A stretch of DNA of 64,000 nt from Bdellovibrionales bacterium. GTDB taxonomy: Bacteria; Bdellovibrionota; Bdellovibrionia; Bdellovibrionales; UBA1609. Under the pieces are notes generated by a model. That model ran no database searches. It saw only the letters and a list, made by a program, of their open reading frames with translations, and had not been told where the DNA came from. Made by a program: the position numbers and the translations under genes. The stretch is taken from contig OZ241329.1 of the NCBI GenBank assembly GCA_965199825.1, forward strand, positions 1,504,001 through 1,568,000, given 5' to 3'. Of the stretch, positions 14,008-63,805 are shown one piece after another. Each line of letters begins with the position of its first letter. Position 1 is the stretch's first letter.

Positions 14008-14434
14008 AATCGTTTCGCCTCATGAGGTTTTGCCATTAAGAGCCAAGGTGCTTCGCCCTAATCTCAAGCCTGAGGATTGTGTTTATGATCACGATCTTTC
14101 GCCAACCACATTTCACCTCGGCTATCTTGAAGACGATAAAGTGTGTTCGATATTGACCGCCATCAGAGAGGGATCACCTCTATTTTTGGCCCAACATCAA
14201 TATCGACTACGGGGTATTGCCACAGATTCCAATTCGTTGCGGCGCGGTTATGGCTCCCAGCTGATGAAAACAGCCGAAGCAATGATCGCCGAGCAAAAAG
14301 GCGAATTAATTTGGTTTAATGCCCGTGTTGAGGCCTTCCCATTTTATCAAAAAATGGGCTACGGATTTTTAGGAGAGCTTTTCTACATTGAAGGAATTTG
14401 GCCCCATCGAGTCATGTTTAAAACGATGCTTTAA
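13997..14434 (+). CDS. GNAT acetyltransferase
   Basis: LRAKVLRP, RRGYGSQL, WFNAR..FYQKMGY. Confidence 0.88.
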   Translation: MPVKIVSPHEVLPLRAKVLRPNLKPEDCVYDHDLSPTTFHLGYLEDDKVCSILTAIREGSPLFLAQHQYRLRGIATDSNSLRRGYGSQLMKTAEAMIAEQKGELIWFNARVEAFPFYQKMGYGFLGELFYIEGIWPHRVMFKTML

Positions 14435-15049
14435 GCGGGTTCGGTGCCGAATAAAAAAGAGCAATCCCACTCCAACTAAACCCCAAATAAAATATGTTTG
14501 GTAATGCAAAAATTCGTGTAAAACATCTTGTCCATAAAGACCGATCAGAATAATTTGGGTTGGAATCGAAATCAGTGCCGCAGCACCATCGATCAAAATA
14601 AATTTATTAAATGGAACATTCATCATTCCGCAAGCAAGGTGCCCCGGAAATCTTAATCCAGGTGTAAATCGGAAAACCCCCGAAGCCCAATATCCATAGC
14701 GACGCATCCAAGCTTCGGCTCGTCTTAAAATTTTTGGTGGACAATGCTTTGCCACAAATGGACGCGCAAGAAATTTGCGACCATAACGGCGACCGAGATA
14801 ATAAATCAATCCATCCGCCAAGATCACCACTAAAAATCCGATGGCGGCTGCCATCCACACATTGACTCCGCGAGCACCCTCAAAGGGTGGTGGAAAATTG
14901 CGCGCGATATTTGCGGCCACTCCCACACCGACGATGGTGACTTCTTCAGGAATCGGCAAACCGAAACACGACAGAAACATCATGGTGCACATTGCGAGAT
15001 AAACAAGATAGGGCTGATAGGCGTAATTGGTAAAAAGATCCATTATCAT
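14369..15049 (-). CDS. DedA family membrane protein
   Basis: GLPIPEE, D..YYLGRRYG, RFTPGLR. Confidence 0.9.
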   Translation of the reverse strand: MIMDLFTNYAYQPYLVYLAMCTMMFLSCFGLPIPEEVTIVGVGVAANIARNFPPPFEGARGVNVWMAAAIGFLVVILADGLIYYLGRRYGRKFLARPFVAKHCPPKILRRAEAWMRRYGYWASGVFRFTPGLRFPGHLACGMMNVPFNKFILIDGAAALISIPTQIILIGLYGQDVLHEFLHYQTYFIWGLVGVGLLFFIRHRTRLKHRFKHDSMGPNSFNVEKLS

Positions 15050-15118
15050 GTGATCTTATTTTAGGTTTAATCTGTTTTTTTGCCCACTTAAAAAAGATGT
15101 TTAACGCCCGTCGATCGT

Positions 15119-34301: not shown

Positions 34302-34403
34302 ATGTTGGTTGGTGGCTGGATTGGCTGATGGGTAAAAGTCGAGTGTGACCCCGTCGGCTTTTGTTGGGATTTTTTGCGGGCATTTTGCGGGCGCTTGGCG
34401 ATT

Positions 34404-34556
34404 TTCAAGTGGGCACGATCTTCAAGTGGGCACGATCTTCAAGTGGGCACGATCTTCAAGTGGGCACGATCTTCAAGTGGGCACGATCTTCAAGTGGGCA
34501 CGATCTTCAAGTGGGCACGATCTTCAAGTGGGCACGATCTTCAAGTGGGCACGATC
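34404..34556 (+). repeat. Perfect tandem array, 9 x 17 bp TTCAAGTGGGCACGATC
   Basis: Counted directly; no spacers. Confidence 0.97.
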
Positions 34557-34732
34557 TTCCCGTACCTTCGTTCACCACCCATTTCGGCTCCTACTAAAAT
34601 TGGGCTGTCAAAATTAAATGAGTACAAAAGTTTTGACCCCTCCGGAGATTTCGCAAATGCCGATCGCCTCAAATCAAAATAATTTTGTTAAACTTGTTCC
34701 GGACAATTTAAGAAATGATCAACTTGTGTCGC

Positions 34733-34775
34733 GGGCACGATCCTTGAGGGGCACGATCTCTTAAAGGGCACGATC
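34733..34775 (+). repeat. Three further GGGCACGATC cores at 16-17 bp spacing
   Basis: Cores start at 34733, 34749 and 34766 with diverged linkers. Confidence 0.9.
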
Positions 34776-34859
34776 CACACGCAACCAAATCAACCCCAAC
34801 CAAGCATTCAAAAATCCCCAGCATCAAATCGTAAAAAAGCCCATCCAAATAAAAAATAT

Positions 34860-53485: not shown

Positions 53486-53902
53486 TAGCGGCCCCTTTAA
53501 TGGTTTTTTATTTTTTGAATTTTAGACCCGGTTTCATCCTATGCACAAGTGGGGAGATGCTAAATTTTGGCGGGTTGAATGTCAGATAAACTGAGGGGGA
53601 GAAAAGGCGATATTATAACCACGCAACTGCGATCTTTATCTCATGGTCAGTTTAAAGAGAGATTGGATTTTTACTGGAGCGATGAAAAGTGTTTTGGGGC
53701 ACCAGGCTCTTCTCAGGTTTTGTGTGATCTTAATTTAATTAACACTTTGAAGAGATTGTGCTTTCAATTGTGTTTCCTATCCGTAGAGCGCTATTCCAAA
53801 CGAGTGATGCTGGTAAATTTTTAAAATATTTCGCTCGTAAAAAATGACATTGCCCCAGCAAATATGATTGTATTTTGATATATATAAATATAGTTTATAG
53901 AA

Positions 53903-54430
53903 ATGAAACAGCTCTCATTTTTTAATCTCTCAAACCGGAAGAATTACGGTGGCGAAATGAAAGGCCGTCGCAAAACAATGCGGCCTTTAGACAAGAAGCG
54001 TTTACATCACGTGATTTTGAAATCGCGGCATGCCAAGGGCGACCGAAGCTTTAAAAAGTTCGACATGCAGATCCAATATAAAAATTTAATTTACTCAAAA
54101 GCTAAGAAATATGGAGTGCGTATTGCTGCCTATAGCAACGTGGGCAATCATTTTCATTTGCTCATCAAGTTTCAAGATCGCAATTTGATCAAAACTTTCT
54201 TTAAAGTGATTGCCGGAGTGATCGCGCGTCTTGCGGTTGGTGCACAAAAAGGCAAAAGGTTTGGCCGTTTTTGGGATTCGGTGCTGTTCACTCGCATCAT
54301 TAGCAAAGGTCGTGATGAACTTCGCATTTTTGATTATGTAGAAGCAAATTTAATTGAAGCGCACTTTGGGAAAGCGGCTCGTAAACATTTTGAAATGATT
54401 TGTAAGGAGTATTGGAAAGATCTTTTTTAA
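53903..54430 (+). mobile_element. RAYT/IS200-like Y1 HUH transposase
   Basis: HHVILK, GNHFHLL (HUH), RFWD, DYVEAN (catalytic Tyr); AT-rich, gene-free flanks. Confidence 0.8.
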
Positions 54431-61454: not shown

Positions 61455-61895
61455 ATGCTTTTATTTTTATTTCTCTCGCTGTTATCCGCACATGCGGGTC
61501 CCAAAAAAAATCCTTTAACGCCGTCGAGATGCGAACGACTTTGTGATCAAACTTTTGAAAGCCTTCGACTGAATGATTTGATTGCGGTAGATTTTGTTTT
61601 CAATGGCAGAAAAACGAGCGCCGCTGGAATCATCTTGGATCTTTCTCATGATTCGATAGTTTTTGGTAGAACACATGTCTACAGAGACGAAATCACCGCG
61701 ATTCGTCTTGCGAGGGTGAATGCCGAAACCGAAGTCGTCTATGGAGTCGGCAACTCAAGAGATCTCGCAAAGGGAAAATATCTTGGATTCTCATTCACCG
61801 CGAATAGCATCAAAATTGGATCGCGAGATGTTGTCATTTCTGAAATCATAGACATTACTGGAGTCAAAGTTAAAACCTTTGAGTTGCAAGAGTAG
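61455..61895 (+). CDS. Hypothetical secreted protein, paralog of 63371..63805
   Basis: Signal peptide; collinear similarity SLR.ND..F..NG..AG, I..IR.AR, GVG.S..A.G.Y.GF.FT. Confidence 0.75.
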   Translation: MLLFLFLSLLSAHAGPKKNPLTPSRCERLCDQTFESLRLNDLIAVDFVFNGRKTSAAGIILDLSHDSIVFGRTHVYRDEITAIRLARVNAETEVVYGVGNSRDLAKGKYLGFSFTANSIKIGSRDVVISEIIDITGVKVKTFELQE

Positions 61896-61952
61896 ACCTA
61901 CCTTCGTTCACAAATTCTAGCGCAATGCTGGTCCCATTTTATGCTGGGCGAA

Positions 61953-62066
61953 ACAACGAAATCTCCGGTGGTGTTGAAAACTTTGTTGGGTCTATTTTGT
62001 GTTCGTTTGGTGTGCCCAATAAATTAAACCTGAATCAAAGACCGACACCGCCGGAGATTTCGTTGT
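61953..62066 (+). ncRNA. Long nested hairpin (putative ncRNA or ssDNA element)
   Basis: 24-bp stem 61953-61976/62043-62066 whose only mismatches are two G.U pairs; inner stem 61982-61990/62015-62023 with one G.U. Confidence 0.55.
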
Positions 62067-62092
62067 GCTTGAGCACCTAGTTTTGTTTTTTG

Positions 62093-62264
62093 AGTACAAA
62101 GTTGTCGTGCCCGCTCAAGTACAAAGTTGTCGTGCCCGCTCAAGTACACAGTTGTCGTGCCCGCTTAAGTACAAAGTTGTCGTGCCCACTTAAGTACAAA
62201 GTTGTCGTGCCCGCTTAAGTACAAAGTTGTCGTGCCCGCTTAAGTACAAAGTTGTCGTGCCCGC
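62093..62264 (+). repeat. Tandem array, 6 full + 1 partial copies of 25 bp AGTACAAAGTTGTCGTGCCCGCTYA
   Basis: Counted directly; single-base variants in copies 3 and 4; no spacers. Confidence 0.97.
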
Positions 62265-62459
62265 ACCTTTTATGTTGACAGGTTTTTCGGTCGACTTTTT
62301 GGCGAGGTATTTGGCTTAGACAGCGTTGGGGGCTTTTCAAAACAAAAAAATTCAATGGCCCATGTTTATAGCCAAAAAAAGCGTGTCTACTGAGACGCCA
62401 CTACCTCTCTATGTTGCGCTTCAAATTTCATTTCTAAAAGTCGTGCTAAACTTCGTCAA

Positions 62460-63287
62460 TTGGAGAAGAGATTTATAAACCATGAAATGATTCACACAAA
62501 GGCTTTGAAGGCTGCAGATCAACACCGACAAACAGAATTGCAATTGCTCAATTCTTTAGAAGAGGTTTGGAAAAACAGAACCTATTATAAATATGGATGT
62601 CGCTCATTGTTTGACTATTCAGTTTCGAAACTTGGGCTTTCTGAGGAGGTTGCGAGTATTTTTAATAAGCTGGCCAAAAAGTTTACCGACGTGCCCGAGC
62701 TTAAAACTGCAATTGCCTCAGGAAAGGTTTCGGTTTCAAAAATCAATCGGATCTGCAGCGTGACCAACAAATCCAATGTGGATAATTGGCTCAAAATCGC
62801 TGAAGGCTCCAAAAGAAATTTGGAAAAACAGATCGCATTGGCTCATCCTGAAAAAGCTTTGCCCGAGCGTTCACGATTAAAAGCGGTAGGCGAAACATTG
62901 AGAGTGGAAGTGAAGTTTTCTTTAACCGAAGAAAAATTTGAATCTTTCAAACGTGCGCAAGATCTTTTAAGCCAAAAGCTGCAACGCCCAGCGACGATCG
63001 AAGATCTAGTAAACGAAGCGACACAGCTTTTTTTAGAAAAGCATGATCCGTTAAAAAAATCGTGCCCGCCAACAAGAACCCAAACACTGAGCAGCGTATT
63101 TAAAAGAACAGTGCATCAACAGCATCACAGTCAGTGCACTCATATCAATAATCAAGGAGAGAGATGCACAGAGCAGCGATTCCTCCATATCCACCATATC
63201 GTTCCGCAATCCGAGGGCGGAACACATACTTTAGAAAATCTCACTTTGTTGTGCGCGGGCCATCATCGTGCCCATCACGTTCATTAA
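62460..63287 (+). CDS. HNH endonuclease with helical N-terminal region (DUF222-like family)
   Basis: QC...RC..LHIHHIVP.S.GG.H..ENL.LLC..HH..HH; N-terminal YG..SLFDY...LGLSE; alternative ATG 62487. Confidence 0.85.
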   Translation: MEKRFINHEMIHTKALKAADQHRQTELQLLNSLEEVWKNRTYYKYGCRSLFDYSVSKLGLSEEVASIFNKLAKKFTDVPELKTAIASGKVSVSKINRICSVTNKSNVDNWLKIAEGSKRNLEKQIALAHPEKALPERSRLKAVGETLRVEVKFSLTEEKFESFKRAQDLLSQKLQRPATIEDLVNEATQLFLEKHDPLKKSCPPTRTQTLSSVFKRTVHQQHHSQCTHINNQGERCTEQRFLHIHHIVPQSEGGTHTLENLTLLCAGHHRAHHVH

Positions 63288-63370: not shown

Positions 63371-63805
63371 ATGATTTTATTAATAGTTTTTTCGCTACTC
63401 ACAGCGAACGCTGGGCAACACGGGCCTCTCCCTTACAATTGCAGAGTCCTCGAAACAGAAGCATTATTGAGCTTACGGCCCAATGACTTCGTTTCGATTT
63501 TATTTATCAAAAATGGCGAAACAAAAGTCACAGCAGGATTGTTTAGCCGGATTGCCGGTGATTACTTTGAAATCAACGAACAGCTTATTCTCATCGACCA
63601 AATTCGTGAGCTGCGGCGGGCTCGAATCGGTGACGAGCTTTATGTTGCCCATGGTGTAGGCAAGTCGTTAGGTTACGCAGCTGGAATATACCGCGGTTTT
63701 GATTTCACATCGGCGACCATCACCCTTGGAGACAATAAGATCAAACTGACCGAGCTTGTGGATTTCAACGGCCCCACAATTCAGCTTTTTAGCCGACAAA
63801 AATAA
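63371..63805 (+). CDS. Hypothetical secreted protein, paralog of 61455..61895
   Basis: Signal peptide ending ANA; same motifs as the paralog. Confidence 0.75.
   Translation: MILLIVFSLLTANAGQHGPLPYNCRVLETEALLSLRPNDFVSILFIKNGETKVTAGLFSRIAGDYFEINEQLILIDQIRELRRARIGDELYVAHGVGKSLGYAAGIYRGFDFTSATITLGDNKIKLTELVDFNGPTIQLFSRQK

Follow-up and report, generated by a model that had tools for sequence, protein, structure and literature searches.

What links an HNH nuclease gene to the long hairpin and the tandem array that lie directly upstream of it? This question is raised by the cassette at 61896-63287 of the window, the 64,000-nucleotide stretch of a Bdellovibrionales genome that was analyzed. The HNH gene (62460..63287, + strand) encodes 275 aa from a TTG codon and matches PF01844 (E 5e-9). 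The array (62093..62264, + strand; period 25, 6.9 copies, 96%) consists of seven 25-bp units, as stated in a preliminary description of this DNA, and each unit contains the word TCGTGCCC with its core at 62105+25n (62105, 62130, 62155, 62180, 62205, 62230, and 62255). In short-read contigs of two runs, one perhaps from the source sample, both flanks are joined to array units, so the array is not purely an assembly artefact; these contigs cover the junctions rather than the number of units. On the left, the cassette is preceded by a host gene outside the element (61455..61895, + strand, 146 aa), whose tandem paralog lies on the right (63371..63805, + strand, 144 aa; 34% identity over the full length, E 2e-27). 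This copy thus lies between two host paralogs, the position expected of an insertion. A search for an empty-site allele found none, and the left flanking gene used as query was unmatched elsewhere in 108 family genomes. At the family start position (62475), this copy has ATA with an altered ribosome site, and 25 of 27 copies have ATG or GTG there; the copy may be weakly expressed and a weak member of its family.

As assessed by tblastn, the genome contains 28 HNH loci, 27 of them starting at the N terminus, with 44-86% identity. Twenty-four have intact frames, one has an internal stop, one is frameshifted, one is truncated, and one is a fragment. Near-full paralogs number 27, the HNH gene of the cassette among them, and the earlier suggestion of a selfish element is supported. 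Paralogs were aligned after omitting two loci whose frames were not recovered whole, the truncated copy, and the fragment (n = 24). The active site and Zn-binding residues do look intact, the catalytic/Zn Cys, His, and Asn being invariant in 24/24 aligned paralogs, and identity is 62% for the protein against 40% at four-fold sites, which indicates purifying selection. No match was found in phages or plasmids. Metagenome scans gave zero relatives by protein and 16 pattern matches, which were due to chance and included no HNH homologs. A third multi-copy family, of ∼310 aa and IS transposase-like, occupies six loci on the main contig, C1 (e.g. 1289493-1290419).

The word of the array accompanies the whole family. 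Within 1.1 kb upstream of all 27 near-full paralogs, TCGTGCCC occurs 151 times in the forward and once in the reverse orientation. It is present 522 times genome-wide, ∼9.5-fold more than predicted by a third-order model, which places it among the top over-represented 8-mers; 229 copies are at HNH loci, 211 in other clusters, and 82 are lone (45-50 expected). It is asymmetric, with free flanks and no palindromic hairpin. The expansion is specific to this genome: a 12-mer, TGTCGTGCCCRC, has 234 copies here, and its count is only 0-4 per genome in 150 others belonging to the order. On C1, 17 of the 23 strong tandem arrays are built on TCGTGCCC, with units of 16-25 bp that differ by locus and keep only the 8-mer and a few bases. 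Array junctions lie from a few to 12 nt on either side of the word, positions that fit local duplication and also plain slippage. Ten clusters have no HNH gene, one of which precedes a Y1 transposase gene. The window itself contains a stand-alone array (34399..34776, − strand) composed of a 17-bp unit (9.5 copies) and three more copies, together with the TACCTTCGTTCAC word and a CCGGAG module, with no HNH gene. Upstream words at 22 loci are separated by 65 mostly unique spacers of 20-200 nt. The idea of captured spacers was rejected, because only 12 of the 65 have distant matches, seven to other copies or arrays and five that are short (16-19 nt). A Chi/KOPS-like host signal was also rejected: the TACC word described below shows no strand bias (33/76 leading), and lone cores number only 82. 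Elsewhere, on a 21-kb contig, tandem repeats of 88, 60, and 21 bp that are unrelated to TCGTGCCC form a block present in duplicate (C5:1857-2894 and 14044-15081).

The array core was also said to recur within the HNH gene itself. This holds at 63060 and 63266, but not for a near-match at 62690 (ACGTGCCC), which is not kept in paralogs and is likely due to chance; the conserved third site is a reverse copy at 62869. Site 1 (62869..62876, − strand) lies in E-R-A-R codons and, although degenerate in this copy, is exact in 16/24 aligned paralogs. Site 2 (63060..63067, + strand) lies in the linker, in K-S-C-P codons, and paralogs have it exact in forward (11/24) or reverse (11/24) orientation. Site 3 (63266..63273, + strand) falls where the metal-binding helix of the HNH domain is encoded, in the codons for H-H-R-A-H-H, and is exact in 23/24. 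Its H-R-A codons are CAT in 24/24, CGT in 24/24, and GCC in 23/24 paralogs, which, being related copies, are not 24 independent draws. By comparison, in eight other Arg columns outside the sites the top codon reaches only 7/22 to 15/23; codon usage predicts the site 3 combination at 3.5%, and four-fold sites are 40% alike between paralogs. As judged from these codon counts, TCGTGCCC is held at silent codon positions of the HNH gene. In the linker, having the word in one or the other orientation entails a wholesale change of peptide, and a single split on the tree separates the two linker types. One paralog that has lost site 1 has a new reverse site 19 nt away. A reverse-forward pair of words 191-192 bp apart is found 18 times, built from different sites in the two linker types; this constant spacing may be partly due to protein length.

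The last array word (62255, + strand) and site 3 would be the left and right ends of the element. Four groups of young copies were compared: in three of them the homology begins no more than 6 nt from an upstream word, and in the fourth it begins 20-30 nt after the word. In close pairs it ends 4-15 nt beyond site 3, or ∼45 nt later in one pair. These word-bounded ends are suggestive only, because BLAST edges get drawn to shared motifs. Two copies 28 kb apart share 521 identical bases, which end 4 nt past site 3 and start 106 nt before site 1, and the truncated copy breaks ∼35 nt past site 2. Since this conversion tract starts off-site and the truncated copy breaks off-site, the sites do not fix breakpoints. 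Inspection of five close copies by eye revealed no target duplication or inverted ends.

The HNH protein was modeled with a pLDDT of 81, and three domains were predicted: a ParB/KorB-like helix-turn-helix (HTH) (∼62520-62849), a ribbon-helix-helix (RHH) (∼62904-63068), and a Zn-bound HNH domain (∼63093-63284), all on the + strand. For residues 14-123, the top four rows of the fold search were ParB/KorB/Spo0J DNA-binding domains with modest Z scores of 6.5-7.0 (under 8), three of which superpose with an rmsd of 2.8-3.3 over 91-97 residues. Residues 142-196 match RHH proteins, again with modest Z scores (4.3-5.1), and the C-terminal end matches HNH domains. Foldseek returned no match at E<=0.001, the N-terminal domain folded poorly alone (pLDDT 62), and PF17762 gave a weak match in 2/16 homologs (E ∼0.02). 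A Pfam search of the protein at E<=0.1 identified HNH families only, with no Nop, RuvC, or GIY-YIG domain. When modeled as a homodimer (pLDDT 82), the protein scored 0.71 against 0.04 for the best control, with 93% contact agreement between runs, and the strand 142-148 pairs with itself as in RHH dimers. The mark used for homodimers is reached by 20/30 solved dimers and 1/23 monomers, and RHH likeness may help in passing it. The model predicts an RHH-linked dimer with two HTH heads. The repeats are likely binding sites for the N-terminal domain, as had been suggested.

Homologs are present in 19 of 40 relatives, often in many copies (match counts 0-37), the other 21 having no match with the HNH query, and the family comprises 5,415 clusters at E<=1e-10. 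In relatives, palindromes were found in 27/96 linker windows versus 9/96 control windows, and many of them have a 6-4-6 layout (e.g. CCTGTC.n4.GACAGG and TTGTGC.ccgg.GCACAA). From its sequence, the word of the HNH cassette reads as half of TCGTGC.ccgg.GCACGA, the source genome having half-sites only. In a Pseudobdellovibrionaceae metagenome-assembled genome (MAG), homologs L142-L145 are 44-49% identical and share a putative recognition helix, SIxNKxAKK; both half-sites lie 83 nt apart in 2/2 linkers, and GGCACGA lies ∼50 nt before the leader at 2/2 5′ ends. The MAG thus has the helix together with almost the same word as the source genome, a covariation that comes from a few related lineages. 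Two of these homologs, L144 and L145, have a long N-terminal extension of degenerate repeats before the conserved start. In the MAG genes, two bases of the terminal codons are different, so it looks as though the source lineage acquired site 3. The idea that every relative writes its own word into the terminal His codons failed, and site 3 looks specific to the lineage. In one relative (G015), 7/9 copies of its own palindrome flank three HNH genes, and in another (G010) both copies are found in and before one HNH gene. It speaks against generality that only 3/38 relatives' genes have their linker palindrome again in the flanks, and a test for shared 9-mers did not separate linker from control (45 versus 40 of 72). 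At 6/10 loci inspected (L002, L022, L032, L035, L036, and L039; genome G036), the HNH stop codon is directly followed by a REP-like inverted repeat, which starts with AACTTTT(C/G)AAA and in most cases has a CATGGATG core.

The long hairpin (61953..62066, + strand; arms 61953-61974/62045-62066) that had been reported upstream of the HNH gene is real, and consists of two inverted copies of a dispersed module, ACACCNCCGGARWTTT. Its mismatches were described as all G.U; the + strand does have 7 G.U pairs of 40, but bulges are also present. Fold z scores are −5.58 on the + and −4.46 on the − strand. Ten HNH loci and three Y1 loci have the module, usually once. Only this HNH copy has the hairpin (1 of 28 loci), its 19-bp helix being unmatched at the other 27 HNH loci (6-15 bp) and found nowhere else by BLAST. 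Between array and gene lies a leader of fixed length (62275..62452, + strand), with TTGAC at 62275 and an extended −10-like TGnTAnAcT at 62444. TTGAC and TG.TA are separated by 168-171 nt in 24/24 copies scored and by 167-189 nt in relatives. These −35-like and −10-like boxes are ∼150 bp too far apart, and the lineages have 167-171, 175-176, or 186-189 nt, roughly in helical-turn steps; the leader is possibly a looped or wrapped promoter. A search of 25 leaders revealed no consensus fold (RNAalifold 0 kcal on both strands) and no clear period or dyad, and Rfam gave no match above chance.

The motif noted after the 61455 gene, TACCTTCGTTCAC, is present (61899..61911, + strand), and is a dispersed word of a Y1 (RAYT-like) transposase clade that is not cassette-specific. 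Its form TACCTTCGTNCRC has 76 copies genome-wide (0.2 expected), 55 of them in ORFs, and is found in the window at 61899-61911 and 34563-34575. Of 11 stretches chosen from 25 sites in three relatives, 10 have it immediately ahead of the start of a Y1 gene. By appearance, it is a word linked to transposases that has been written into the coding DNA of the host. The genome has 17 Y1/RAYT-like genes (PF01797), including one in the window at 53903-54430 (+ strand) with a word at 53843-53857. Most Y1 genes have their own dispersed word, AAATGACANTGCCCC, upstream (49 copies genome-wide, 43 outside ORFs), which makes them a parallel self-tagged family.

How does this arrangement compare with known systems? 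IscB has a split RuvC around its HNH domain, with a conserved structured RNA upstream. The cassette resembles IscB/HEARO in having an HNH domain with repeats or structure upstream. NF040563, however, scores 31.6 bits against a cut-off of 175, over the HNH stretch only, and the rest of the protein models as HTH and RHH, which excludes IscB; HEARO-omegaRNA is rejected because Rfam has nothing above chance, the hairpin is found at 1/28 loci, and 25 leaders have no consensus fold. TIGR-TasH, too, is an HNH domain with repeats upstream, and is described as having 36-nt guides with variable spacers (PMC12045711), whereas the cassette has near-identical units of 16-25 bp, a period that varies by locus, and no Nop domain. 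As for CRISPR, the units of the 62093-62264 array are near-identical and the unique spacers at other loci are irregular (20-174 nt). The initial view that this is not CRISPR, TIGR, or IscB is upheld by the near-identical array units and by the lack of RuvC or Nop domains.

The system works in the manner of RAYT-REP and Ssn-SRM but lacks the domains that define them, and it is similar to 13E12 without a DUF222 match. RAYT-REP/REPIN and TIRYT-TIR have a nuclease gene amid its own lineage-specific short repeat, with tandem clusters elsewhere (PMC3116915, PMC3733652). Here as well the gene is flanked by its repeat (27/27 loci), which is over-represented genome-wide (∼9.5-fold), but the nuclease is HNH rather than HUH/Y1, the gene itself is multi-copy, and the repeat is a polar asymmetric 8-mer without hairpin, embedded in coding sequence. 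Ssn (NTS/SRM) genes are likewise flanked by repeats, which Ssn has been shown to recognize, in lineage-specific pairs with large expansions in some genomes; Ssn consists of one GIY-YIG domain, which reads a hairpin of ssDNA (PMC11893778), whereas the HNH protein has separate predicted dsDNA-binding modules and no hairpin. The predicted HTH fold would be that of ParB-parS, Noc-NBS, and KorB-OB, and the 6-4-6 linker palindromes of relatives have the 16-bp parS/NBS layout (PMC7383237). Unlike ParB, the HNH protein has no CTPase domain in its 275 aa, is fused to HNH, and has lone half-sites around its own gene. REP13E12/DUF222-HNH shares many dispersed chromosomal copies, a helical N-terminal domain with a C-terminal HNH, and inter-copy recombination; it differs in that the accessible passages mention neither a cognate DNA word nor tandem arrays for it (PMC3381160, PMC13157036). 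PF02720 (DUF222) has no match in the source genome at E<=0.1, and DUF222 is found in 21% of the members of one look-alike Atlas cluster, so distant kinship is possible.

We propose a protein-DNA self-addressing system, in which a dimer docks on half-sites, nicks nearby, and primes gene copying and local duplication, an account that we hold to be somewhat likelier right than wrong. Its parts do not stand equally firm: the word RTCGTGCCCR is quite probably the HNH protein's own docking site, and the chances that it drives mobility of the HNH gene are about even. The word would be the docking half-site of the predicted ParB-like HTH, and the RHH-linked dimer would bind two half-sites. HNH would then nick near bound sites, and the nicks would prime the copying of the gene into new intergenic positions as well as conversion between its copies. 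Upstream, nicking or stalled repair at the sites would duplicate 16-25 bp around the site, and slippage would lengthen the array, which would recruit more protein. Nuclease-triggered amplification of the array is plausible, and stand-alone arrays may be by-products or remnants.

Short tandem units also expand by slippage without any nuclease. This would be enough to lengthen the arrays if the sites were operators only, in which case the protein would repress or titrate its own genes, the slippage-born arrays would be sponges against a toxic nuclease, and the genes would have spread by another route. The predicted HTH and RHH are repressor-type folds and the sites cluster just before the leader, both of which suit such a role. 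Sites at both ends of the duplicated unit, a polarity of 151:1, and nine clusters without an adjacent nuclease gene are left unexplained, and we consider the operator reading unlikely. Still less likely is a domesticated, damage-inducible host family whose sites seed recombination and rearrangement to the benefit of the cell. Purifying selection and 24 intact frames among 28 loci are what one would expect of it, but cis-acting selfish genes would stay intact too. The mycobacterial 13E12 genes offer a precedent, being LexA-controlled (PMC3381160) and located at inversion breakpoints (PMC13157036). Against domestication are the match counts of 0-37 among 40 relatives, 21 with none for the HNH query, and the confinement of the word expansion to the source genome among the 150 other genomes of the order that were compared.

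The remaining two readings turn on the upstream elements. The 17 Y1 transposases might be responsible both for the arrays and for the movement of the HNH cassettes, in the way that RAYTs act on REP sequences; one Y1 gene does have arrays of TCGTGCCC upstream, the Y1 word TGACANTGCCC has TGCCC in common with TCGTGCCC, a 25-nt module is common to Y1 and HNH upstream regions, and in 6 cases (0.8 expected) no more than 40 nt separate the core from the Y1-linked TACC word. However, TCGTGCCC is found at 1/17 Y1 loci versus 27/27 HNH loci, TGACANTGCCC at 0/28 HNH loci, and TCGTGCCC is not a hairpin, which makes this explanation improbable. We give the least credence, and very little of it, to the original proposal that transcripts of the hairpin and array serve the HNH protein as an RNA partner or guide. 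The better fold and G.U pairs of the hairpin on the + strand, the 65 mostly unique spacers (20-200 nt) at 22 loci, and the fixed-length leader could be seen in its favor. The hairpin with its 19-bp helix is nevertheless confined to one of 28 loci, and the period of the arrays varies (16-25 bp). Moreover, 25 leaders share no consensus fold and Rfam has nothing above chance, the spacers match little except the upstream regions of other copies, RuvC and Nop domains are absent, and TACCTTCGTTCAC is a word of the Y1 transposase clade.

Returning to self-addressing, a broader reading is that these genes form a transposase-free selfish class, in which an HTH reads a word in the gene's own ends and catalytic-helix codons, HNH nicks, and the word is amplified into genome-wide arrays; this we put forward tentatively, and with more doubt than belief. 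New here are the lone polar half-site, its entry into catalytic-helix codons, and the runaway tandem arrays. In a search of openly accessible articles, none was found that describes HNH genes with a cognate word of their own. Such multi-copy HNH genes are abundant and unexplained, and this genome supplies an exact candidate for the recognition word, which makes binding, cutting, and mobility simple to test. If self-addressing is right, there would be an HNH-based route, beside RAYT and Ssn, for a nuclease to breed its own repeats, which would account for most tandem arrays in this genome. If the broader class is real, the family clusters, thousands in number, would each have a recognition helix matched to a word of its own, amounting to a natural library of compact site-specific nickases.
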